Below the pieces are notes generated by a model. It was not told the origin of the DNA. It ran no database searches and saw nothing but the letters and a program-made list of their open reading frames with translations. Below, piece by piece: positions 1-53,528 of a stretch of DNA of 64,000 bases; the stretch's first letter is position 1, and each line of letters begins with the position of its first letter. This DNA comes from Escherichia coli (GTDB taxonomy: Bacteria > Pseudomonadota > Gammaproteobacteria > Enterobacterales > Enterobacteriaceae): assembly GCF_024298765.1 (NCBI RefSeq), contig NZ_CP101210.1; one strand, written 5' to 3'. Position numbers and translations under genes: made by a program.

Positions 1-208
1 GGATAATTTTAAAATAACCCCACTCTTCAGCATGGACGCCGAACAACTGCAGGAGCTGACCGCCCCAACGGGTAAATTCACCTGTGACAGCCCAAAAGGT
101 GCCAGTGATGCCAAAATAGTAAGTGGAGAGAATACCCGCCGCGATGACCGCGGGGATGGGCGCCCAGAATTTAATCAACCAGGCGTGTTTGAATTGCTGC
201 CATGACAT
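1..208 (-). CDS. yedE: YedE-like inner membrane transporter, N-terminal part (gene continues beyond window start)
   Basis: Reverse-strand translation from ATG at 206-208 reads MSWQQFKHAWLIKFWAPIPAVIAAGILSTYYFGITG..., a hydrophobic N-terminus matching the K-12 gene divergent from yedD. Confidence 0.55.
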   Translation of the reverse strand, partial: MSWQQFKHAWLIKFWAPIPAVIAAGILSTYYFGITGTFWAVTGEFTRWGGQLLQLFGVHAEEWGYFKII

Positions 209-391
209 GAATGTAGCCTCTGAACTCAGAAGGTTTGAAACAAGAGTCGCGAATCATACACCATGCAAATTTATTTTCGGGGTAATAATTCACAAAAATA
301 ATGGTTAGATCAAATTTCTCTCTGAACCTGGAAAGGCTGGCGACATCAGGGCTTTAATGCCACAATCCTCTTTTCTTCTCATGCAGGACGA

Positions 392-808
392 ATGATGAAA
401 AAACTCGCAATTGCAGGTGCGCTCATGTTGCTGGCGGGCTGTGCCGAAGTCGAAAACTATAACAATGTCGTGAAAACCCCCGCGCCGGACTGGCTGGCGG
501 GCTACTGGCAGACCAAAGGGCCGCAACGTGCGCTGGTCAGTCCGGAAGCGATAGGCAGCCTGATTGTCACTAAAGAGGGCGATACCCTCGATTGCCGTCA
601 GTGGCAGCGGGTGATTGCCGTGCCGGGTAAATTGACATTGATGTCTGATGATCTCACTAACGTTACCGTAAAACGTGAGCTGTACGAGGTTGAGCGTGAC
701 GGTAACACCATTGAGTACGATGGTATGACGATGGAGCGTGTGGATCGCCCGACGGCAGAGTGTGCCGCCGCGCTGGATAAAGCGCCGTTACCGACGCCAC
801 TGCCGTAA
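392..808 (+). CDS. yedD: Lipoprotein YedD
   Basis: 138-aa ORF with lipobox MMKKLAIAGALMLLAGC; position between yedE and amyA as in K-12. Confidence 0.8.
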   Translation: MMKKLAIAGALMLLAGCAEVENYNNVVKTPAPDWLAGYWQTKGPQRALVSPEAIGSLIVTKEGDTLDCRQWQRVIAVPGKLTLMSDDLTNVTVKRELYEVERDGNTIEYDGMTMERVDRPTAECAAALDKAPLPTPLP

Positions 809-841
809 TGAAATCTCCCCGGCTTGCCGCCGGGGATGAAT

Positions 842-2329
842 TTAAATCACCTCTTCGATAACCCACACGCTGACGCTGCCGCCGTTGCAAAAGAAGGTCG
901 CTTCGCCGTTTTCTTCGGTCACTACGCTCTCTTGCCGGTTCCCCAGAAAATCACGCCAGGTTTTATTGCCGTAATTCTCTCCCAGATGAATGGTTTTTTC
1001 GCCATCATCCCCGTTCGACATGACCACCACGCAGCCGGGATATTCGTCGGTGCCACTGCGGCTAAAGGCAATGCAGTTCGGATGGTCGAAAAATAACGTC
1101 TGTACACCGTGGGCGAAACGCTGACGGGCGAGAATTAACTCATCAAGCTGTTCGATTATTGGCATATCTATCGGATAGGTTTGCCCGTCACCACCGACAT
1201 CTTCGTAATGTGCACCGTAGAGGTCCGGATAGAACACCGAAGGAACGCCATTTTCCCGCAACAAAATTAAGGCATACGCCAGCGGTTTAAACCACGGTTC
1301 GACCGGTGCTTCGAGGGCTTGCAACGGTTGGGTGTCGTGGTTGGCAACGAGGGTTACGGCGTGAAAAGGATCGGCTTCCACCAGCGTCCCAGTGAAGATC
1401 TGCGTCATGTCGTAGTCGCGACCCATGCGCGATGCTTCATGGAATTTCATCTGCAGCGGCGCATCAAACAGCATGGTTTTGCCTTCCACCTGATCAATAT
1501 ACGTTTGCAGTTTATCGACTTCATGCGACCAGTATTCAGCCACAATAAACAGCGGCTTTGGCGCAACTTCCTGTACGTGTTCGATCCACTCTTTATAAAA
1601 CCATGCCGGAATATGTTTGACCGCATCAAGACGAAAGCCGTCGCATTGCGTTTGTTCCATCACCCAGCGCGCCCAGTATTTAATCTCTTCCGTCACGGCA
1701 TGATTGCGAAAATCGATATTCTCACCCATCAGATAATCGAAATTACCGAGTTCATCATCAACCTGATCGTTCCAGCCTTCTCCGGTATAGTCGTTAACAA
1801 TTTTAAAAATGCCATCTTCATCAGGGTTTTCGATATGGTCGATACCGCTAAAACATTTGAAATCCCAGATAAACTGCGAGTATTGCCCGGCACGCGCGGG
1901 GAAGGTGTAACGCGTCCAGCCTTCGCACTCAATGATTTCTTCGTCAATTTGCGTACGGTCATCAGCATTTACACGTTGCACGCGAATAGCTTCTTTTTCA
2001 TCCGCGCCCATTTTGTGGTTGACTACCACGTCCAGCAGCACCGCAATGTCATTACGTTTCAGGGCGTCAATGGCGGCCAGCAGTTGTGCTTTATCGCCAT
2101 ATTTAGTAGGGATGCTGCCTTTCTGATCAAACTCGCCTAAATCAAATAAATCATAGGAGTCGTAGCCGACCGAGTACCCGCCCGATGCGCCTTTATAGGC
2201 GGGCGGCAACCAGACCATATTGATACCAATATCATTAAAACCGTCGGCGCGCTCGGCCAGTTCAGGCCAGAGCTTACCGCCTTCCGGGTAATACCAGTGA
2301 AAACATTGTAACAGCGTGGGATTACGCAT
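842..2329 (-). CDS. amyA: Cytoplasmic alpha-amylase
   Basis: 495-aa ORF with glycoside hydrolase family 13 motifs ([15 protein letters not shown]); next to fliT as in K-12. Confidence 0.9.
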
Positions 2330-2406
2330 TCTTCGACTCCATTCAAGGGGAACATTAGAAGCGTAGCCGTAATCAGATTATTCGCGAGCCATTGGCTCTT
2401 TAAGAT

Positions 2407-2772
2407 TCAAAAGAGGTTATCCTGCGGAGCCAGCACAAAGCCACCCTGATCGCCATAGGCACTTAACACCGATTTTTGCACCGATGACTGACCGACCAGT
2501 TTCGCCAGTTCATCCATCCGAATCTGTAATAACTGCTTTACCTTGCTTTCGTTGTCGAGAATCAGGCGCAGCATCGGGCGGAGCTGCTCCTGCATCGTGG
2601 TGGACGGGGCAACCTCTTCAGTCAGGTGTGCGATCTCCTGCACCGCATTCACATACGCCATTTCGCTGGCGATGAGTTCGTCCCATTGTTCTTCTGTCGC
2701 CAGGCGTAACATGAGCTGACTTTTTTCGACGAGTTGTTGCCAGGCGAAATACAAATGCGGTGCATTGTTCAT
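2407..2772 (-). CDS. fliT: Flagellar export chaperone and anti-FlhDC factor FliT
   Basis: 121-aa ORF directly downstream of fliS in the fliDST operon. Confidence 0.85.
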
Positions 2773-3182
2773 CAGTCTGGGTCCTGAATCAAAGAAGGGG
2801 AGAGTAAAGACTCTTTCCAGGCATCGGCAATATTGCGCATTAATGCTTCCACTTCTTCGACTGCGGAGACATCGTTGCGTAAATTGGCTTGCAGCAAGCG
2901 CCTGACCATATAGCTATAAAGAGCAATCAAGTTTTGGGTTAGTTCGTCTTTGCTCTCTTCATCAAGACTCACCCGCAGCCCGTTCTCAATGATGTTGATC
3001 GCTTTTGACAAAGAGACGCCTTTGCCTTGCTGATTGTTGTCCTGCATAAACAGGCGCGCTCTAACCAGTGCGCTCAGCACTCCATCAAATAGCATGGTGA
3101 CCAGCTGTTGCTGGCTGGCGCTCATTACGGCGCTTTCGACGCCAATTTGTGCATAGGCCTGGGTGCCTTTTGCCGCGTACAT
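2772..3182 (-). CDS. fliS: Flagellin-specific chaperone FliS
   Basis: 136-aa ORF, fliDST operon context. Confidence 0.9.
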
Positions 3183-3197
3183 AGTCTCTCCTGAAGA

Positions 3198-4613
3198 TTA
3201 TTTCGAGTTGCTATTTGAGGTGTCGAACTGCTGTGTCAGATAGCTACTAGTGGAGTTCAGCGAGTTCATTAACACATCTAATTGGGTGAACTGGGCTTTA
3301 TAGCGCGTCATTAAGGTATCGATACGTTCACTGGCTGCGTTGTACTGGTCGGTCAAATTATTCAGCGTTTTGCTGACGCCATCTTTTGCTGCCTGGATTA
3401 TCCCGGTGGAAGAGAGCCAACTGGTCAGGTTGTTACTAATGCCGGTGGTTACCCCAGTACTTTTGCCGTCACCTATAAACATTTCACCGATACCAGCGGC
3501 ATCATTTTTTAGCGCCGTTTGCAGTTTGTCGGTCGCGATTTCCAGCTTGCCGGTACTGGCATCGCTGGTAATGCCAATCTGTGCCAGCGTTTTATAGTTT
3601 GAACTGCTGTGAGTATTGGCGAGCAAGGTTTTAAGCTGAGTCTGGATGGTACGCAGTGTGGAGTCACCGAGTAATGCGCCATTACTGGAGTCCTGACTTT
3701 CAGCTCCGGCATCGACAGCGGTGTATTTGGTTAAGCTGCTGAATGTATCCTGCAATGTGTTATAGGCATCCACCCACGCTTTAACCGCATTTTCAGCTTT
3801 GGATGTGTCTTTACTGATGGTCAGTGTCTGATTACCGGTGGTGACGTCATTCAGGTTGAGGGTGATATCTTCCAGTGAGTCGCTGATAGTGTTACTGCTG
3901 TTTTCAATCTCAACGTTATTGACTGTCAGTTTGGCGTTTTGCGCGGTGACGCTTTCAATCATGCCATTGCTGCTATCACCCGGCGTTCCGTTGTAACCCA
4001 TAAAACTTTCCAGGGCGCTGTCGCCGCTGACGCTAAGTTTCATAGCGTTATTGCTGCCCGTATCGTTAGCGGTGATGGACAGACGATATTCGCCGTTTCC
4101 CACATTGATGATACTGGCGCTGACACCAGCTTTGGCGTTGTTAATGGCATCGCGAATGCCGGAAAGTGACGAGTTACCCGCGCTGATATCAATCGTGACC
4201 GGATCTTTACCGCCGCCTTGTTGGATGGTCAGTACGCTATCGCTGGTGGCGATGGCGGCTTTACTGTCTTTTTGACTATTTTTTGTTGTCAGCGTCTGTG
4301 CCTGCGCCAGTTGGCTAACGCTAATGGTGTATTTCCCAGCAATCGCGCTGCCCGTGGTGGTGGCGCTGAAAGCCGATGAACTGCTGGTGGTTGAGGTGGC
4401 GGTAAATAAATCGGCTTTATTCAGTGCTGTGTTGGCTGTCTGGAAACTCTCTAGTGCACTTTTCAGCGTCCCGTAGGCGCTCAGTTTCGCGGTGTAAGAG
4501 CTTTGCTGTTTTGATATCGGCGTCAGGGTAGATTTTTCTGCCGCCTCCAGACTGTCAAGGATGCTGCTTAAGTCCAGCCCCGACCCAACCCCAAGCGTTG
4601 AAATACTAGCCAT
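3198..4613 (-). CDS. fliD: Flagellar filament capping protein FliD
   Basis: 471-aa ORF, Ser/Thr-rich, conserved N- and C-termini, divergent from fliC. Confidence 0.9.
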   Translation of the reverse strand: MASISTLGVGSGLDLSSILDSLEAAEKSTLTPISKQQSSYTAKLSAYGTLKSALESFQTANTALNKADLFTATSTTSSSSAFSATTTGSAIAGKYTISVSQLAQAQTLTTKNSQKDSKAAIATSDSVLTIQQGGGKDPVTIDISAGNSSLSGIRDAINNAKAGVSASIINVGNGEYRLSITANDTGSNNAMKLSVSGDSALESFMGYNGTPGDSSNGMIESVTAQNAKLTVNNVEIENSSNTISDSLEDITLNLNDVTTGNQTLTISKDTSKAENAVKAWVDAYNTLQDTFSSLTKYTAVDAGAESQDSSNGALLGDSTLRTIQTQLKTLLANTHSSSNYKTLAQIGITSDASTGKLEIATDKLQTALKNDAAGIGEMFIGDGKSTGVTTGISNNLTSWLSSTGIIQAAKDGVSKTLNNLTDQYNAASERIDTLMTRYKAQFTQLDVLMNSLNSTSSYLTQQFDTSNSNSK

Positions 4614-15044: not shown

Positions 15045-15593
15045 ATGCAATTTAATATCCCTACGTTGCTTACACTGTTCCGTGTCATCCTTATCCCATT
15101 CTTTGTATTGGTCTTTTATCTGCCTGTCACCTGGTCGCCGTTTGCCGCCGCGCTCATTTTCTGCGTCGCGGCGGTGACTGACTGGTTCGATGGTTTTCTG
15201 GCACGCCGCTGGAACCAGAGTACCCGGTTTGGTGCTTTCCTTGACCCTGTAGCAGATAAAGTTCTCGTGGCTATCGCCATGGTGCTGGTAACCGAGCATT
15301 ATCACAGCTGGTGGGTGACCTTACCGGCAGCAACGATGATCGCCCGTGAAATTATTATTTCTGCGTTACGCGAATGGATGGCGGAGTTGGGTAAACGCAG
15401 TAGCGTGGCTGTCTCCTGGATTGGGAAAGTGAAAACCACTGCCCAGATGGTGGCGCTGGCCTGGCTGCTGTGGCGTCCGAACATTTGGGTTGAGTACGCC
15501 GGTATTGCACTTTTCTTTGTGGCTGCGGTACTGACTCTGTGGTCAATGTTGCAATATTTGAGCGCTGCGCGTGCAGATTTGCTTGATCAGTGA
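15045..15593 (+). CDS. pgsA: CDP-diacylglycerol-glycerol-3-phosphate 3-phosphatidyltransferase
   Basis: 182-aa membrane protein with CDP-alcohol phosphotransferase motif (DG...AR...G...LD...DK). Confidence 0.9.
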
Positions 15594-15744
15594 TCGTTTC
15601 GGCGCAATTTTCAGCAAACGATCAAAAGTGGTGAAAAATATCGTTGACTCATCGCGCCAGGTAAGTAGAATGCAACGCATCGAACGGCGGCACTGATTGC
15701 CAGACGATAATAAAATCAAGTGATTAACTGATTGCTTGATGAAT

Positions 15745-15820
<76 letters not shown>

Positions 15821-15874
15821 GTTTAAAAGACATCGGCGTCAAGCGGATGTCTGGCTGAAAGGCCTGAAGAATTT

Positions 15875-15948
15875 GGCGCGTTAACAAAGCGGTTATGTAG
15901 CGGATTGCAAATCCGTCTAGTCCGGTTCGACTCCGGAACGCGCCTCCA
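15875..15948 (+). tRNA. cysT: tRNA-Cys (GCA)
   Basis: 74-nt sequence ggcgcgttaacaaagcggtt...cgcctcca; anticodon loop attGCAaat. Confidence 0.9.
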
Positions 15949-15960
15949 CTTTCTTCCCGA

Positions 15961-16047
15961 GCCCGGATGGTGGAATCGGTAGACACAAGGGATTTAAAAT
16001 CCCTCGGCGTTCGCGCTGTGCGGGTTCAAGTCCCGCTCCGGGTACCA
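15961..16047 (+). tRNA. leuZ: tRNA-Leu, long variable arm; integration target of the prophage
   Basis: 87-nt sequence gcccggatggtggaatcggtagac...tccgggtacca; its 3' half is duplicated at 53405-53459. Confidence 0.9.
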
Positions 16048-16116
16048 TGGGAAAGATAAGAATAAAATCAAAGCAATAAGCAGTGTCGTGAAACCACCTT
16101 CGGGTGGTTTTTTTGT
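15993..16116 (+). repeat. attL: 124-bp direct repeat (3' half of leuZ plus downstream terminator)
   Basis: Identical by eye to 53405-53528; includes the leuZ terminator hairpin gaaaccaccttcgggtggttttttt. Confidence 0.85.
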
Positions 16117-16588
16117 ATTTGTATTTTGAGCAATGGCGGTAGAGTGGCGGTGGTGTGGCGATATGCAGAAACAATAATGGTGGTGCACGTGCTGTTTAAG
16201 CTCTAAGGATGAAGCAGAATTCTCCTGCAGCTCCTCCGTATTTCGCATAGTGAACCAAGACTTCGGTTAAACAAAATTTTTCTGGGATTTTTCCACTCGA
16301 CTTCATTTTTCCTCCAGTCATCCACCAAAGGTACCTGCGCTAATCTATCTTTTTTAATCTGACAACATCCTGAGAAAAGGCAAATTCGTCAGATTTACTG
16401 TTTTTTCTGCTGCTTCGAATGCCGATGTCTGCAGTACTGATAAGAGCTCTATCTCTTTGATATAGATCTTTTTTTTGATGAATTGCTCGACATATTATCG
16501 TTATGACACCTTCTTGTTAAAGGTGTTGTACTCCACATCTCGATTTTATGATGTGGGTTATGATTGGTTAGTAATAGAGTGTATCGGT

Positions 16589-16870
16589 ATGCGATGTGGT
16601 TTATTAATGGCAATATGCTTTTGTTTGGTATCTTTTAGTGGGTATGCAGCAACAGGAAAGTCTGATGTTCAGATCAAGAAAGAAATAATTAAAGAATCCA
16701 TTGAATCATATCCAGGCAATTGTGCGTGTCCTTATAATCATGCAAGGAATGGTAGTAGGTGTGGTGGACGCAGTGCATATAGCCGTACTGGAGGGTATGA
16801 TGTGGTATGTTATGAGAGTGATGTTACTGATGAAATGATCCGGCAATGGAAGCAGGAGAATGCTGATTAA
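16589..16870 (+). CDS. Hypothetical secreted cysteine-rich small protein (prophage moron)
   Basis: Signal peptide MRCGLLMAICFCLVSFSGYA followed by a Cys-rich mature region (GNCACPYNH...RCGG...VVCYESD); AT-rich. ORF finder extends it to 16475. Confidence 0.4.
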   Translation: MRCGLLMAICFCLVSFSGYAATGKSDVQIKKEIIKESIESYPGNCACPYNHARNGSRCGGRSAYSRTGGYDVVCYESDVTDEMIRQWKQENAD

Positions 16871-17061
16871 TTACTTTTGACTGGTTTGTTTTGCGAGCAT
16901 TATGTGTGTTGTTAACGGTACCCTAGCTAAGTGAGAGTTCCAAAATAAAACCCGCAGTTTTTACGCTGCGGGTTTTATTGTTTCTGTCGATGGGATAGGG
17001 TGCCACTTCGGCCAGCCTTGGCAACCGATTGACGGGGGATTACTCCCCCGTCGCGGTTTCC

Positions 17062-17202
17062 TTACTGCTTACACTGTAAGAACGCCGCAAACTCCGCTCC
17101 CCAGAAGCTCATCCGTATTTCACACAGCGAACCGTGCAGCATCCAGATGATGAGGATTACCGTCACGCAGAACGTGATGGCCGTAAGCGATTTTTGCGAC
17201 AT
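17062..17202 (-). CDS. Hok/Gef-family type I toxin-like small membrane peptide
   Basis: 46-aa translation MSQKSLTAITFCVTVILIIWMLHGSLCEIRMSFWGAEFAAFLQCKQ: TM helix followed by SLCEIR and E(F/V)AAF, the Hok family pattern. Confidence 0.55.
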   Translation of the reverse strand: MSQKSLTAITFCVTVILIIWMLHGSLCEIRMSFWGAEFAAFLQCKQ

Positions 17203-17383
17203 AGCGCTTGCTCCTTTTTAGGGGAGGCGCTAACCTATCACTTGCTAAGGTTAGATGGTTAGGGCCTCGGTTAAACAGAGATGTTTTCCGGGGCCTTTCC
17301 ACATCTGGCCTTCGGGCATACCCTCCGACCATCAGCCGAAAGGCACCCGCGCGTAATCTATCGTTTTTTTGTTGCTTCGGCAA
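17120..17383 (-). CDS. Mok-like overlapping reading frame (translational coupling frame for the hok-like gene)
   Basis: 87-aa ORF overlapping the hok-like gene in another frame, as in hok/mok/sok loci. Confidence 0.3.
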   Translation of the reverse strand: MPKQQKNDRLRAGAFRLMVGGYARRPDVERPRKTSLFNRGPNHLTLASDRLAPPLKRSKRYVAKIAYGHHVLRDGNPHHLDAARFAV

Positions 17384-17392
17384 TTCTGCTCG

Positions 17393-17653
17393 TTAATTCT
17401 GAGGTAAAGGCAAACTCATCTGATTGTTTCCCCTGTGTGACGTTGGCAGTTCATGCCACGGGATACCTTCTGAAGATCGAACGCCTGAGGTGTGTTTCGA
17501 TGTGAATTTATGGAAAGCTTCCAGTGTTGAGAAGCATACGCCGCATTCCAGGTTGTTACACTGGTAATACTTTTGTCGGACGGTGTTTGAATCATTTTCC
17601 GGACGACTTGTGCGGATACGGGCAGATGCGCCACAAAGCGGACAACGGAACAT
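17393..17653 (-). CDS. ogr: Ogr/Delta-family zinc-finger late-gene transcription activator
   Basis: MFRCPLCGASARIRTSRP...YYQCNNLECGVCFSTLE: Cys4 pattern and N-terminus resemble P2 Ogr. Confidence 0.8.
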   Translation of the reverse strand: MFRCPLCGASARIRTSRPENDSNTVRQKYYQCNNLECGVCFSTLEAFHKFTSKHTSGVRSSEGIPWHELPTSHRGNNQMSLPLPQN

Positions 17654-17896
17654 AGCAACCTCCCTTTAGGTGGTGCTATTCTAAACTTCATCAATGCAGA
17701 TTCCAACTCCTTCCCACTTTAAGCGAAGGATGGTGATAAAGTCAGAATATGTTAGATGAAGTCTAAACGGGCGATAAGTTTTCCAATATTTGAATAACAA
17801 CGTGGCAGGATTTTTGTTTATCAATTATCTTACACTTTTAAGTGTAATAAATTTGTTAGTGATGACAATATTGTGAGAGGAGATTATCAATTGAAG

Positions 17897-19360
17897 ATGG
17901 CAAAAAATAACAATGATAAAATGCGGGCAAAGTATAGGCCGTTCATAAATATATGGGAACATCTTCCTTCTGAGTTCAATGAACTCATCAAGACGTTAAT
18001 GGTGCTGATACGGCAAGGGGAAAATGTGGGAGCTCAGCAAAGGGAGCTTGATTCCATCGAAAACTTCAAACACCTGTTAAGTGGATGGAAGCGGGCGCAA
18101 AGGATCATAGCTGATGAACTCATTATCAGGCTTTCTCAAATCAAGGATCTGGAGTTAGAAAAGAATTGTGCCCATTCAAAAAAGGACTATGAAACAAAGA
18201 AGAAGTGTATACGCAATATTGAAAGGACTAGACTAGAAATTAGGATTTTACGTAGGTGCATTGATTCAATTGTATGGGCGATATTCCGCAATGAACACTC
18301 GTCTATAAGACGGTTACCTATAAATAGAAATACTGACAATCTGACAATATTTAATATACATGATTCAATGGTGGTAGCAGATGAAATCAATGCTGATCCG
18401 ATGGCTATAGCTGTTATCACTGATATTACTACGTTTGTACATACTGGTGATTTACTTGCGTTAATACCTCAGCAAGGCATAACTTTAATTGAAATAAAAA
18501 GTGGTAAGAAAAATATAGAGTTTTCAAAGGCGGCTATGTTCTCAGTGCAAAGTAAATGTCTTCATTTTGATGAGATTTATAGAAAAGACCTTGATAAAAA
18601 TGACTTGAAACACTATGACAGAGCTAAGCGTCAACTTAAAAGAGCTCAAAATGTGATAGATGTCATTGAAACTGGTAAGGGATTTGATAACTTTTTTCAG
18701 TCTCAAGTAACAATTCATGACAGAGATTTTTGTCCCGATTTTTATACAGATAAGATTATTGAGCTTTGGTATGAGATATATAACGGTAAAACTTGGGCGA
18801 TTACTGACATTAATGATTGTTTATTCCTTGGGGCATATATTAATTCTAATATGGGTTTTTGCGGTTTTAATGGATGGATGGAGGTATCTAGAATATCGGG
18901 GAGAGTGTTTAATATTCTTGATAGCTTTTCAGATGCTTTATCACGTCCATTTTTTAGTTTGAACCTACCTGATAAATTGCTTCTGGATATCATTAATGGC
19001 AATCTAATTGTTGTGCTGTGTTTCGATCATCGTCGTTTCGTAGAAAGAGCAAATAAAAAATACCCCGGGATTTATGAGTTATTGGACTTTCCATCTCCGA
19101 AGATTAATCCTATGAGTATGCTTTCCATCAATGGGAAGGGGGTAGTTTCTAGTGTTGATGGACAGAGTGTTTTTATTGGAAATGGTTACGAAACACGGAT
19201 TATTTTTGATCAGCAATATCCAGATAGTCTGATTAAGTGGTCATACCATATGAGTGATCTCAAAAAAAATATTGATAAAAAAAAGCGTAAAATGAAAAAG
19301 GAAACGCAAAGAAAAATAAAAGAGAAAAGAAAACGTAGCAGAAAACAATGCTTAAACTAA
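17897..19360 (+). CDS. Hypothetical 487-aa protein, AT-rich orphan moron between ogr and gpD (candidate accessory or defence gene)
   Basis: Long ORF in a very AT-rich island; RBS GAGAGGA upstream of ATG 17897 (ORF finder starts at GTG 17873); possible PD-(D/E)xK-like motif GD...EIK; Lys/Arg-rich C-terminus. Confidence 0.55.
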   Translation: MAKNNNDKMRAKYRPFINIWEHLPSEFNELIKTLMVLIRQGENVGAQQRELDSIENFKHLLSGWKRAQRIIADELIIRLSQIKDLELEKNCAHSKKDYETKKKCIRNIERTRLEIRILRRCIDSIVWAIFRNEHSSIRRLPINRNTDNLTIFNIHDSMVVADEINADPMAIAVITDITTFVHTGDLLALIPQQGITLIEIKSGKKNIEFSKAAMFSVQSKCLHFDEIYRKDLDKNDLKHYDRAKRQLKRAQNVIDVIETGKGFDNFFQSQVTIHDRDFCPDFYTDKIIELWYEIYNGKTWAITDINDCLFLGAYINSNMGFCGFNGWMEVSRISGRVFNILDSFSDALSRPFFSLNLPDKLLLDIINGNLIVVLCFDHRRFVERANKKYPGIYELLDFPSPKINPMSMLSINGKGVVSSVDGQSVFIGNGYETRIIFDQQYPDSLIKWSYHMSDLKKNIDKKKRKMKKETQRKIKEKRKRSRKQCLN

Positions 19361-19490
19361 CACATCTAATGCTTTAATTTGCTTTACTGTTACAATGTCC
19401 GCTTACTGGTACAGGGCGGACTGCCATATTAGATTTGGTTCTATCTCGTAAGAGTGGCCGTTCAGGTCTGCACTAATACATCTGAATGGT

Positions 19491-20600
19491 TCACTCTGTT
19501 TCTGCTATCCATTCCGGGATTTTTGCTTCAAGCTCAAGCTGAGTGGTAAAGCCGCTGTTATCAATGGTGTGCTCGGCTTTTGCAATAATCCAGTCCTGAT
19601 TATCAATCTCGCTTTTAAATCCTGTTACCGTGCCATGCATTTCGGGGAAGAGTTCTGCGCGTCCGCGTGCCAGTGTGATGGAGAATGATGCGGCTCCGCG
19701 TTGTAGTTGTTGCCACTTTGCCGCCGCTGCGCGTCTTGCTGCCTGCTCGTTCTGATAAGTCTTGCGTAACACAAACACATTGCCTTCCGCGCCTTCCATA
19801 TAATCACCTTCACGGCTGCTGCTTTTCTCTTTTTTCGGTTTTGGCGGTTTGCGGCGTTTCACGCTGACTTTTTTCTTTTTCCCGTAATTAAGATCAAGCC
19901 AGTAAGCGCGTACCCCCGTATACGCCTCGCGGTCAGCAATGCGGAACTGATGGCGATCGCCGCTGCTGCGTGTGATGGCGAACGATGGCAACGGCTGGCC
20001 CTGTGCGTTCACGCCACCGCCGGGCATGATGAATAACAGATTACCGCTTTTTACCGTGGTGATTGCGCCCAGCATTTCCGCCATGCGCGTAAGGAAGGAC
20101 ATGTCACTTTCTTCGGTCTGGTCGGCGTGGTCGATTTCGATATGCATCAGCATTTCGCTGATTTGCGGTTTCAGACCGTACCGATGAGCGATGGCGGATA
20201 CCACACGCTCAACGGTCACATCATGCCAGGACACCTCACGTTTAACGTTAAATTCATCCCGAAAATCTGCGCTTCTGGCTGAAACAGTCAGCCTGTCCGG
20301 CGGTCCTTCGTGTGCGATTTCATCGACAATGTAAGAGCCTTTTTCTGTCAGCGGTTCGCCTTTCCAGCCAATGAGAACCGTCAGGCGCGCGCCCCGTGGC
20401 GGTAGCCGCAACTGACCATCCGCATCATCCAGCGTGATGGTGAGCTGGTCTGCCTCAAATCCCCGGTTGTCGGTCAGCGACAGGCTCATCAGGCGCTCTG
20501 CCACGCCGGACAGCGTTTTACCCTCCGCGAGAATATCAAAATCCGGCATTTTTACGGGGTCTGTGCCCTGACTGAGCAATTGCATGGTGGTGTCGGTCAT
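19491..20600 (-). CDS. Tail protein gpD (P2 D homologue)
   Basis: Start at MTDTTMQLL with a GGGAGGG RBS; the ORF finder extends it to 20732. Confidence 0.8.
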   Translation of the reverse strand: MTDTTMQLLSQGTDPVKMPDFDILAEGKTLSGVAERLMSLSLTDNRGFEADQLTITLDDADGQLRLPPRGARLTVLIGWKGEPLTEKGSYIVDEIAHEGPPDRLTVSARSADFRDEFNVKREVSWHDVTVERVVSAIAHRYGLKPQISEMLMHIEIDHADQTEESDMSFLTRMAEMLGAITTVKSGNLLFIMPGGGVNAQGQPLPSFAITRSSGDRHQFRIADREAYTGVRAYWLDLNYGKKKKVSVKRRKPPKPKKEKSSSREGDYMEGAEGNVFVLRKTYQNEQAARRAAAAKWQQLQRGAASFSITLARGRAELFPEMHGTVTGFKSEIDNQDWIIAKAEHTIDNSGFTTQLELEAKIPEWIAETE

Positions 20601-20757
20601 CTGTTCCCTCCCTGTGCGGCATGGTCGCATGTGCGTGCGGCGGGGGTTACTGCTTTTTGTTGTCGCCGGGTCGGGAGAACGGCGCAGGGGTGAGATTACG
20701 CGCGTGGTGGGTGATGATTGTTGCCGAATCATTTAACGGATACAAGGGGCTGAAGCT

Positions 20758-21942
20758 ATGAGTGAAACTCGTTTTCATGGTGCCCGTGTTACGGAAAATA
20801 CCGACCTGGTAACAGCGATTAACGATGTTGATTCCAGCGTTATCGGTATCGTGGCAACGGCGGATGATGCGGACGCGAAGCTGTTCCCGCTGAACAAGCC
20901 CACACTGCTGACCCGCGTCAATGACGTGCTGGGAAAATGCGGGACAACGGGGACGCTTTATCGTGCGCTTAAGGCCATCGCAGACCAGGTGAGCACAAAG
21001 GTGATCGTCGTTCGCGTGGCTGAACACAAAGAAGAAGACGGAAAGACGCAGGATCAACTGGTTATCGGTGGTTCTGAGGATGACGGCAGCTATACGGGGA
21101 TGTATGCGCTGCTTGTTGCAGAGCAGGATGAAAGCATCGGATACCGTCCGCGTATTCTGGCCGCGCCGGAGCTGGACACGGAGGCGGTAACAAAATCCCT
21201 GTGCGTGATTGCGGGTAAACTGCGCGCGTTTGTGTATGCCTCATGTCACGGCTGTAACACGATGGCTGAGGCGATTACCTACCGCCAGAAATTCAACGAA
21301 CGTGAGGTGATGCTTTTATGGCCGGACTTCATCGCCTACAACCCGAAAAGTGGCAAAAACGAAACGTTCCCCGCGCCTGCCTATGCGTGCGGCCTTCGTG
21401 CGTACATTGACCATGAGCAGGGCTGGCACAAATCGCTGTCCAACGTTCCTGTTAAAAATGTGCTGGGAATGTCCAGGCATGTGTTCTGGTCGTTGCAGGC
21501 CGAAGACAGTGATGCCAACAGCCTCAACAACAAAGAAATCACGACCATTATTCGTCGCAACGGGTTCCGCTTCTGGGGCAACCGCACACCGGAAACGAAC
21601 GCCTACATCTTTGAGGTGTATACCCGAACCGCACAGGTGCTGGCTGATTCAATTGCGGAAGCGCAGTTTGAAACCATCGACAGTCCACTGACGCCTGCGA
21701 ACGTGAAGGATGTTATCAGTGCCATCAGGGCAAAACTGGATTCACTGGTTACTGCCGGGAAACTGATTGGCGCGGAGTGCTGGTATGACGTGGTGGATAA
21801 CAGCACCACGGATTTACGTCAGGGGCGTGTGCGTATTCGCTACAAATATACGCCTGTTCCGCCACTGGAAGACATGGAGCTTTACCAGACGTTTACTGAT
21901 GAATACTTTGAACCTGCATTTGCGGTGCTGGGAGGTGCCTGA
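20758..21942 (+). CDS. Contractile tail sheath protein (P2 FI homologue)
   Basis: 394 aa with conserved sheath motifs (RILAAPELDT, WPDF, IRRNGFRFWGNRT, YTPVPPLE). Confidence 0.9.
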   Translation: MSETRFHGARVTENTDLVTAINDVDSSVIGIVATADDADAKLFPLNKPTLLTRVNDVLGKCGTTGTLYRALKAIADQVSTKVIVVRVAEHKEEDGKTQDQLVIGGSEDDGSYTGMYALLVAEQDESIGYRPRILAAPELDTEAVTKSLCVIAGKLRAFVYASCHGCNTMAEAITYRQKFNEREVMLLWPDFIAYNPKSGKNETFPAPAYACGLRAYIDHEQGWHKSLSNVPVKNVLGMSRHVFWSLQAEDSDANSLNNKEITTIIRRNGFRFWGNRTPETNAYIFEVYTRTAQVLADSIAEAQFETIDSPLTPANVKDVISAIRAKLDSLVTAGKLIGAECWYDVVDNSTTDLRQGRVRIRYKYTPVPPLEDMELYQTFTDEYFEPAFAVLGGA

Positions 21943-22454
21943 TGGCTGTGCCAAAACATCTTCGCTTTTTTACGCTGTTTGTGGATGGTGAAAACGAAGT
22001 GGGTAAGGTGACGTCCGTCACTCTGCCTAAGCTGACGCGCAAAACCGACAGCTACCGGGGGGGTGGCATGATGGGTGCGGTAAGTATTGATCTCGGTCTG
22101 GACGACTCCGCGCTTGATGCGAGCTTTGTCATGGGGGGCGCAGTTCGTGAGCTGTTCCTGAAGTATGGCGGCACGATTGACGGCACGCTACTGCGTTTTG
22201 CGGGTGAATACTACACCGATGCAGAAAGCGACCTGTATGAAGTCGAAATGCGCGGACGTGTGACGGAAATTGATATGGGGGAAGCCAAACAGGGCGAAGC
22301 CACATCACACACTTACGCCATTAAAAACACCTACTACAAGCTGAGTGTTAACGATCGCCCGTTGTGGGAGATTGATCTGCTGAACTTCATTTACCGGAAG
22401 GACGGCAAGGACATTGTGCCCGATCGCATCCGTTCCGCGCTTGGGCTTGGCTGA
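21942..22454 (+). CDS. Tail tube protein (P2 FII homologue)
   Basis: 170 aa immediately after the sheath gene with an ATGA overlap. Confidence 0.85.
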   Translation: MAVPKHLRFFTLFVDGENEVGKVTSVTLPKLTRKTDSYRGGGMMGAVSIDLGLDDSALDASFVMGGAVRELFLKYGGTIDGTLLRFAGEYYTDAESDLYEVEMRGRVTEIDMGEAKQGEATSHTYAIKNTYYKLSVNDRPLWEIDLLNFIYRKDGKDIVPDRIRSALGLG

Positions 22455-22508
22455 TAAGTAATATGCAGGCGGCGCAGTGCGTCGCCTCTGACTGAAAGGA
22501 GTTTCCTG

Positions 22509-22874
22509 ATGAAAGAGACGAAAAACATCGATACCGAAAACACGGTAGTTACTGACACTGTGAAAGAAACCAGTGAGCGTGGCGTAAAACTTACCCAACC
22601 AATTGAGCGAGGCGGCGAAAAAATCACGTATGTGGATATCACCGGGGCTATTGAGCAGGCTGGATCTCTGCGAGATTTGTCGCTGTCTGATGTGCTGAAT
22701 CTGAAAGCGGAATCCATGTTTACGCTGCTGTCACGCGTGACATCACCGCGACTGGATGAAGTGACGATCAAAAAAATGGCATCCCGTGACTTTATTCAGT
22801 TATGTGTGGTTGCCGTAAATTTTTTGAGCGGTGCGGACTCTGGCGGGAAGAACGAACAGGCGACGGAAGCCTGA
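22509..22874 (+). CDS. Tail assembly chaperone gpE
   Basis: Small ORF between tube and tape measure containing the T6G slippery site. Confidence 0.7.
   Translation: MKETKNIDTENTVVTDTVKETSERGVKLTQPIERGGEKITYVDITGAIEQAGSLRDLSLSDVLNLKAESMFTLLSRVTSPRLDEVTIKKMASRDFIQLCVVAVNFLSGADSGGKNEQATEA
22820..22826 (+). other. Programmed -1 ribosomal frameshift slippery heptamer TTTTTTG (E to E+E')
   Basis: TTTTTTG inside gpE; the -1 frame continues as FFERCGLW... to 23038. Confidence 0.5.
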
Positions 22875-52296: not shown

Positions 52297-53298
52297 ATGT
52301 CGGTTCGTAAGATTCCATCAGGTAAATGGCTTTGCGAATGTTATCCCTACGGAGCATCGGGAAAACGCATTCGTAAACAGTTTGCGACAAAAAGTGAGGC
52401 GCTCTCTTATGAGCGCCGTTTAATGAATAGTAGAGTTGGAGACGAGTTTCAAGATGGTTCTGGTCCTCGTCTTTCTGAGTTGATTGCTCGTTGGTTTGAG
52501 ATGTACGGCAAAACCTTGTCCTCTGGTGCAGAGCGCAAAGTCAAACTTGAGGCGATTTGTTCTAGGCTGGGAGATCCATTTGCTTCTCAGTTTGACAAAA
52601 ATATGTTTGCTACTTATCGGGAAAGAAGGCTATCAGGAGAATGGAATCCCAAGGGGAAGAAAAAACTTAGTGAAGCAACCGTTAATCGCGAGCAGTCATA
52701 TCTACATGCTGTTTTTGCCGAACTGAAGCGCCTTGGGGAGTGGTCTGGTGAAAACCCCCTGACTGGAATTCGCAAGTTTCGTGAGGAAGAAAAGGAGCTG
52801 GCGTTTCTGTATGTAGATGAGATTGAACGCCTTTTGATTGCGTGTGATGAGTCACGGAATAAAGATTTGGGGGTTGTTGTCCGTATTGGGCTTGCGACTG
52901 GTGCTCGGTGGAGTGAAGCAGAAGGATTAAAGCAATCTCAAGTACTGCCCGGTCGAATCACATTTGTTAAAACTAAAGGAAAGAAGAACCGCACTGTACC
53001 GATTTCACCTCAATTGCAGGCTATGCTTCCTAAAAAACGAGGAGCGCTATTTTCACCATGTTATGAGGCTTTTGACGCTGCAATTAAGAGAGCGAAGATA
53101 GAGCTCCCTGATGGGCAATTAACTCATGTGCTACGTCACACGTTTGCTAGTCATTTTATGATGCGGGGCGGAAATATTCTTGTGTTGCAAAAAATACTGG
53201 GGCATAGCGATATAAAAATGACTATGCGTTATGCGCATTTTGCTCCGGGTCATTTAGAGGCTGCTGTTGAATTAAACCCTTTTGACAATAGAGGGTAA
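52297..53298 (+). CDS. int: Tyrosine integrase (P2/186 family)
   Basis: 333 aa with catalytic motifs ...RHTFASHF... and HSDIKMTMRYAHF; next to attR. Confidence 0.9.
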   Translation: MSVRKIPSGKWLCECYPYGASGKRIRKQFATKSEALSYERRLMNSRVGDEFQDGSGPRLSELIARWFEMYGKTLSSGAERKVKLEAICSRLGDPFASQFDKNMFATYRERRLSGEWNPKGKKKLSEATVNREQSYLHAVFAELKRLGEWSGENPLTGIRKFREEEKELAFLYVDEIERLLIACDESRNKDLGVVVRIGLATGARWSEAEGLKQSQVLPGRITFVKTKGKKNRTVPISPQLQAMLPKKRGALFSPCYEAFDAAIKRAKIELPDGQLTHVLRHTFASHFMMRGGNILVLQKILGHSDIKMTMRYAHFAPGHLEAAVELNPFDNRG

Positions 53299-53404
53299 AA
53301 AGTGGCGATAAAAAGTGACAATAGATTCAAATGGCGTCGTATAGAGCTATTTGCAAAGTTAATAAAATCATAAGGTTATGATTTATAAATGGTGGTTGAT
53401 AGTT

Positions 53405-53528
53405 TTTAAAATCCCTCGGCGTTCGCGCTGTGCGGGTTCAAGTCCCGCTCCGGGTACCATGGGAAAGATAAGAATAAAATCAAAGCAATAAGCAGTGTCG
53501 TGAAACCACCTTCGGGTGGTTTTTTTGT
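53405..53528 (+). repeat. attR: 124-bp direct repeat (partial 3' leuZ copy plus terminator)
   Basis: Identical by eye to 15993-16116. Confidence 0.85.

Follow-up and report, generated by a model that had tools for sequence, protein, structure and literature searches.

At the left end of a prophage in an Escherichia coli chromosome, minus-strand DNA next to the attachment site resembles fragments of a hok-like toxin locus that lies intact about 1 kb further in. An initial annotation had read this stretch (16180-16450) as a decayed tandem copy of that locus, which raises the questions of whether the resemblance reflects descent, how a second copy came to be there and whether it retains any function. 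From our analyses we conclude that the stretch, referred to below as the relic, is very probably a non-functional, decayed paralogue of the HokW-like locus at 16995-17383, which yields neither toxin nor antitoxin and is carried by P88-like phages as passenger DNA.

The leuZ prophage and its intact hok locus

The window, meaning the whole 64,000-nucleotide stretch that was analysed, is E. coli chromosome and includes uvrC, pgsA and the genes for tRNA-Gly, tRNA-Cys and tRNA-Leu(UAA) (leuZ), with tRNAs at 15745-16047. It contains a perfect 124-bp direct repeat (124/124 identical), one copy of which (15993-16116, plus strand) comprises the 3' part of leuZ and a terminator (16090-16111), the other lying at 53405-53528. 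The two copies mark attL and attR of a 37-kb P2-like, P88-like prophage; 124 bp is unusually long for an att identity segment. Over the stretch compared, namely the left end and tail (16942-25000), the prophage is 94-97% identical to P88 and other Xuanwuvirus (Peduoviridae) records. Homology to P88 starts at approximately 16942, at a hairpin terminator (16944-16979) which was recognised by a terminator scan and the P88 comparison and stands between a small gene and the intact hok mRNA. An integrase-sized ORF just inside attR (52297-53298) is read as int purely from its position. In RefSeq genomes with a reduced prophage, the gene after leuZ is yecA.

The relic occupies positions 1-270 bp inside attL, the interval flagged initially corresponding to 64-334 bp inside. 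Further in lies the small gene (16589-16870, plus strand), which encodes a cysteine-rich protein of 93 aa with a hydrophobic, signal-peptide-like N-terminus (WP_071589622.1); the product matches phrog_27544 at 1.6e-59 and no Pfam family above the cut-off. Beyond the intact hok locus is ogr (17393-17653, minus strand), encoding the zinc-finger late transcription activator (Pfam Ogr_Delta, 52.5 bits; RefSeq annotation). Between ogr and gene D, a 495-aa ORF (17873-19360, plus strand; a 465-aa hypothetical protein, WP_001107526.1, in the RefSeq version) has no match in Pfam, PADLOC or PHROG and is missing in related prophages that have gene D directly after ogr (L007, as well as L035 and L036). 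This ORF resembles an uncharacterised moron and could be a candidate defence gene.

The intact locus is transcribed from the minus strand (mRNA 16995-17348) and encodes a HokW-like protein of 46 aa (17202-17062). This ORF matches Pfam HOK_GEF with 30.1 bits (cut-off 22) and the PHROG 'MokW-like host killing' at 2.5e-23, and the protein shares 100% identity with P88 Hok and 76% with the HokW of Stx phages. Experiments have established HokW/SokW of the Stx phage Sp5 as a working type I toxin-antitoxin system, in which 71 nt of the 5' UTR are complementary to the Sok RNA (PMC8621323). An alignment with the Rfam sok model covers 17348-17214 at 42.7 bits, below the gathering score of 59 of that model, and predicts the 5' end of the hok mRNA at 17348, 7 nt downstream of the promoter. 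Direct reading together with this implied 5' end suggests that the promoter (17355-17383, minus strand) is formed by TTGCCG (17383-17378), a 17-nt spacer and TAGATT (17360-17355). Known elements of hok mRNAs are tac/fbi, ucb/dcb, mok and Sok, the tac/fbi 5'-3' closure being their defining trait (PMC9841398). The RNA 17348-16995 folds at an MFE of -157 kcal/mol (z -5.47) with 5'-3' closure; in the predicted fold its 5' end, GGGUGCCUUUCGG, pairs with CCGAAGUGGCACCC at the 3' end in a closure of the tac/fbi type. By analogy with R1 and HokW, the Sok promoter presumably has its -35 at 17208-17213 and its -10 at 17231-17236, and the promoter scan called no Sok promoter in the intact locus. The leader also contains a 22-codon ORF (MPEGQMWKGPGKHLCLTEALTI; 17251-17319, minus strand), which stops about 50 nt before the hok ATG and thus, unlike the canonical mok, does not overlap hok.

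Homology to hok and anatomy of the relic

A nhmmer profile built from 19 intact hok loci was run on the 64-kb window. It returned two matches in the relic, colinear, on the same strand and with 1 nt between them, and these were the sole non-self matches in the 64 kb. The first (16395-16259, minus strand; model positions 16-178, E 5.2e-10) covers the ogr end, the hok promoter and the mRNA leader, and the second (16257-16188, minus strand; model positions 307-380, E 1.2e-5) the C-terminal coding part of hok. Local alignment of 16263-16356 with 17266-17368 gave 74/102 identities (72.5%) and a score of 52, compared with 19.5 ± 2.3 for shuffled sequences in one run and 14.5 ± 2.2 (z 16.8) in another. 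The C-terminal block has 29/36 identities with the intact copy (80.6%, z 10.4) and the ogr 3'-end block, 16367-16395 versus approximately 17402-17431, has 24/30 (80%, z 5.8), a level reached by 0/500 shuffles. The surviving blocks are, overall, about 72-80% identical to the neighbouring intact copy.

Although short single motifs in an AT-rich region (41-43% GC) would suit a chance resemblance of intergenic DNA to hok, the probability of that reading is practically nil. Three blocks stand colinearly in the right order and orientation, the nhmmer E-values are 5e-10 and 1e-5, no comparable match occurs elsewhere in the 64 kb and the observed scores lie beyond every shuffle; chance is refuted by the shuffle controls and the profile search. 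Significant colinear DNA homology over promoter, leader and coding part identifies the relic as hok by descent. A tblastn search for a remnant of the Ogr protein upstream of the relic gave chance-level matches only (best E 0.94), and the ogr-like block is therefore a likeness at the DNA level only.

The similarity claimed by the initial annotation is thus real and wider than was stated, the local alignment of 16180-16450 with the intact locus extending beyond short motifs with clear statistical support. The likeness of 16331-16440 to a supposed leader at 17345-17450 was correctly seen in so far as a 24-nt block (87.5%) and a 30-nt block (80%) can be aligned there, with indels between them, but they are not leader: 17345-17450 contains the hok promoter and the 3' end of ogr, the mRNA 5' end being predicted at 17348. 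The true leader homology, at 16259-16335, had not been listed. That the relic is a decayed second copy of the toxin locus holds for all three colinear blocks, but the term 'tandem' is loose, as the copies, although in the same orientation and about 1 kb apart, are separated by a 590-bp insert (16396-16985) with its own gene and terminator.

Read in the direction of the would-be transcript, the relic begins with the ogr 3'-end-like block (16395-16367, minus strand), which corresponds to the region upstream of hok in the intact copy and lies inside the first nhmmer match. Alignment and direct reading place a promoter vestige at 16365-16342 (minus strand), in which the -10 TAGATT (16347-16342) is kept and a -35-like TTGTCA (16365-16360) is separated from it by 12 nt, compared with 17 nt in the intact locus; the promoter scan called nothing at this vestige. 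From this spacing we infer that the relic is transcriptionally silent. The leader relic follows (16335-16259, minus strand), which takes in the tac/ucb region and the antisense counterpart of the Sok terminator hairpin, and its differences from the intact leader are AT-biased, 16 to 2. It includes a conserved Shine-Dalgarno-start codon pair (GGAGG at 16315-16311, ATG at 16306-16304; SD-ATG below), which is homologous to that of the 22-codon ORF in the intact leader (17251-17319).

The leader ends abruptly at an internal deletion (junction 16257-16259, minus strand), where nhmmer model positions 179-306 are missing; in variants of the L007 type the junction consists of GGCCCTA joined to GTTC. 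The deletion corresponds to about 120-128 bp of the intact locus, from 17262/17250 down to 17135/17133. This stretch holds the hok Shine-Dalgarno sequence, the ATG and codons 1-23, including the whole TM helix, and, if the Sok position is taken from R1 and HokW, presumably also the Sok promoter and the 5' part of Sok. What is left of the coding region (16257-16188, minus strand) corresponds to codons 24-46 and the beginning of the 3' UTR, as seen in the profile match, the alignment and the translations. It encodes GSLCEIRR, then a 4-nt indel shifts the frame, so that it reads GSLCEIRRSCRR; past the frameshift the original frame gives EFCFILRA and a stop, compared with EFAAFLQCKQ and a stop in the intact protein. 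The initial annotation had correctly noticed GSLCEIRR on the minus strand without a TM helix or an intact frame. The minus-strand ORF containing it (16328-16203) reads ...RSLGSLCEIRRSCRRILLHP, lacks a hydrophobic N-terminal part and has no match in Pfam or PHROGs. Downstream, AT-rich sequence runs into three RTGGCGRT repeats (16162-16133), followed by the att core.

Three features of a working hok locus are missing. The relic has no ORF of 46-52 aa with an N-terminal TM helix and the PF01848 (HOK_GEF) domain. The interval homologous to the presumed Sok promoter and the 5' part of Sok is lost, and with the Rfam sok model RF01794 nothing matches within 16100-16500, even at E≤1; a search of 15500-18500 with the Rfam families found nothing in the relic. 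Its would-be transcript has an MFE of -50.8 kcal/mol and no excess folding (z +0.13 versus -5.47 for the intact RNA), 111/200 shuffles folding as well, and therefore lacks the structured fold with tac/fbi closure of hok mRNAs (PMC9841398).

Variation among relatives and place in the phage genome

The relic was found in 645 of 5426 complete E. coli genomes (~12%), O157:H7-type strains included, and among the 40 matches listed no annotated feature lies under it. From E. coli genomes, IMG/VR contigs and one MAG we obtained 20 distinct variants of 346-349 nt. All 20 share the identical deletion, which implies that the deletion predates the divergence of the variants. An undeleted orthologue was sought in IMG/VR with the exact patterns TTTTAATCTGACAACATC and GGTANAGTGGCGNTGNTGTGGCGAT and in GTDB species genomes with GTGGCGNTGNTGTGGCGATATGC; none was found at the relic position in either collection, all true matches being deleted. 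Two IMG/VR pattern matches, L014 and L029, proved to be chance matches, and the sole match among the GTDB species-representative genomes was a contig of a 'Citrobacter sp.' MAG with the identical deleted relic.

Between variants, identity over the hok C-terminal and leader blocks of the relic ranges from 78-85% for the most distant class to 93-94% for the nearest. In that most distant class the intact hok CDS is 98-100%, its leader 91-92% and the small gene 95-96% identical, and the intergenic DNA between the small gene and hok (16871-17061) has diverged as much as the relic blocks (77-84%). The hok-derived core is thus among the most diverged segments of the region. The SD-ATG of the leader is present in 19/20 variants, and the ORF following it is 36 aa long in the window; L005 has 34 aa in a different frame and L007 has 13 aa, so that no coding constraint is visible. 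Compared with the intact locus, the consensus of the 20 variants scores higher (68) than every one of the variants by itself (45-65). Fast divergence, shifting frames, AT bias and a consensus nearer to the intact locus form the signature of a pseudogene.

Some variants and strains have been remodelled around or within the relic. An IS1 copy lies just after it, in place of the small gene, in L006; a segment with IS1 and tet(B) begins inside it, near window position 16304, in L004; and a 1.3-kb insertion at window positions 16381-16386 in L018 has a 6-bp overlap suggestive of a target duplication. In strain 97-3250 (L005, NZ_CP027599.1, 2429-4315) all that is left of the prophage between leuZ and yecA is a 2-kb stub, consisting of the relic, the small gene, intact hok and ogr; the retained hok/sok could help to stabilise this stub. 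The relic in many O157:H7 genomes has 92.9% identity, equal to that in strain 97-3250.

The length of the relic is stable at 346-349 nt although variants differ by up to 15%, and invariant runs occur, e.g. TTTCTGCATATCGCCACA adjoining the att arm and GGAGGAAAAATGAAGT in the leader. These observations could hint at constraint, but the variants represent 3-4 clades only, so that such runs are expected by chance. One conceivable source of constraint is that the hok fossil was co-opted as part of an attP arm, supplying spacing or protein-binding sites (Int, IHF or an excisionase) that integration or excision at leuZ would require, or that it acts as regulatory DNA upstream. Either role would explain why every variant keeps the deleted form at constant length. 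The relic lies 1-270 bp from the att core and travels with attP in the IMG/VR metagenome contig L035, and three tandem RTGGCGRT-like repeats read directly from the plus strand (ATGGCGGT, GTGGCGGT and GTGGCGAT; 16133-16162) abut its 3' end. On the other arm (53301-53345), in the same orientation, lies a related copy, AGTGGCGAT (53301-53309), and beyond it the degenerate AGTGACAAT and ATGGCGTCGT. The repeats are putative arm-type integrase sites of attP, but they lie outside the hok-homologous core except for its 3' fringe, while the core itself belongs to the region's most diverged parts between variants. Moreover, the RTGGCGRT count is inflated by coding sequence, most of the 18 matches in the window being inside genes. 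We therefore regard co-option as unlikely.

The contig L035 has the order int-attP-relic-small gene-hok-ogr. As int-attP is joined there directly to the relic, we take the relic to be part of the phage genome, apparently of its leuZ-specific attP flank, and not a chromosomal scar. A scar would be the last piece of an older P2-like prophage at leuZ, foreign to the present phage. In the prophage next to copA (L003), homology begins only at approximately 16383, which makes 16117-16382 specific to leuZ-site elements, and the stub of strain 97-3250 illustrates how little of a prophage may be left between leuZ and yecA. But the relic is located inside the 124-bp att repeats, no third att copy was found between it and the rest of the prophage, and L035 contains the junction expected of a phage genome, although a tandem double lysogen could mimic that junction. 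A scar thus appears highly unlikely.

P88 and L003 have the intact hok only, without the relic. The homology to L003 spans the small gene and its upstream region; the small gene is common to that prophage (84% DNA identity), in which a serine acetyltransferase gene separates it from hok.

For a relic that belongs to the phage, two origins fit. An ogr-3'-end/hok segment may have been duplicated long ago within one phage and later split by insertion of the small-gene cassette, or two P2-like phages may have been joined by illegitimate recombination, one contributing its int-attP-hok-ogr' end and the other its small gene-hok-ogr end. As the copies are only ~72-80% identical, a recent local duplication is unlikely, and recombination between two phages explains the data equally well as local duplication. 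Apart from orthologous relics, no hok relative at least 80% identical was found in E. coli genomes, and among phage records the nearest was a 75% match covering only the hok leader of Stx phages. This lack of a closer relative and the 72-80% identity do not discriminate between the two origins, since the relic evolves fast enough for either. Several of the Stx2a-converting phage records LC616032-LC616076 contain two separate Hok-like matches each, which indicates that several hok copies per phage genome are not unusual.

Decay and remaining function

A single deletion of about 120-128 bp took away the hok ribosome-binding site, start codon and TM helix along with the presumed Sok promoter and 5' recognition part, so that toxin and antitoxin would have been lost in a single step. 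Later damage comprises the 4-nt frameshift, the shortened promoter spacer, AT-biased substitutions and the loss of the 5'-3' closure of the RNA. The relic is probably kept only by its place between parts required by the phage, the att arm to one side of it and the small-gene/hok/ogr block to the other. Most likely it has no mechanism of action, and probably it gives no transcript.

Could it still encode something, either a short peptide from the SD-ATG or an RNA that cross-talks with the neighbouring hok and Sok? The persistence of the SD-ATG in 19/20 variants speaks for the former, but the ORF behind it has 36, 34 or 13 codons in frames that differ by variant, and nothing matches in Pfam, PHROG or Rfam. 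An RNA role is suggested by the leader, which is ~72% identical to the intact part antisense to the Sok 3' hairpin; the Sok-recognition region, however, falls within the deletion, the promoter spacer has only 12 nt and there is no excess structure. We consider any such residual function extremely unlikely. The EHEC small RNA Esr41 was also considered as the identity of the relic and ruled out, being encoded on SpLE1 (PMC5286369).

Decay of hok loci is common and well known. Inactivated chromosomal hok/sok loci, hokA-E of K-12, were reportedly described by Pedersen and Gerdes in 1999. The K-12 loci lost their function through IS insertions, point mutations or larger rearrangements, whereas the relic was killed by a single internal deletion of ~120-128 bp that took the toxin start, the TM helix and the presumed Sok promoter. 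A survey of Hok diversity found hok to be enriched in prophages and set degenerate CDS aside, 5.1% being too short and 2.6% having internal stops (bioRxiv 10.1101/2025.08.07.668861). The relic resembles the K-12 loci and these degenerate CDS in its lost function, its recognisable leader and coding pieces and its seat in a chromosome or prophage. Unlike those loci and CDS, it is too degraded for annotation with protein or Rfam models.

Further close counterparts are hokW/sokW of the Stx phages Sp5/933W and the 'MokW-like' gene of P88: the C-terminal vestige LCEIR...EF..FL is of the same short HokW-like type. In contrast to both, the relic has no ORF start, no TM helix and no Sok gene, and the fold of hok mRNAs is not seen in its RNA. 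Its leader, the only block matched, is ~75% identical to hokW of Stx phages; given this value and the ~72-80% identity to its neighbour, the relic was not copied recently from either. In P2-like phages the DNA between ogr and attP is variable, with gp53 in P88, a serine acetyltransferase gene in the copA-site prophage and the small cysteine-rich gene here, and it also houses the relic. Unlike the moron cassettes at this location, the relic is not a gene cassette but what is left of an earlier hok-ogr end; it suggests that the int-attP module was exchanged in the past or that an old duplication took place. It marks the junction between ogr and attP in P88-like phages as a place of such past events.

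The relic is thus an ordinary, unannotated hok pseudogene and not a new system, and it matters little beyond annotation. Counts of hok made with protein or Rfam models miss it, which is the correct outcome when functional loci are counted. A deletion that takes the toxin start and the antitoxin promoter together would be a safe death for a type I toxin-antitoxin locus.
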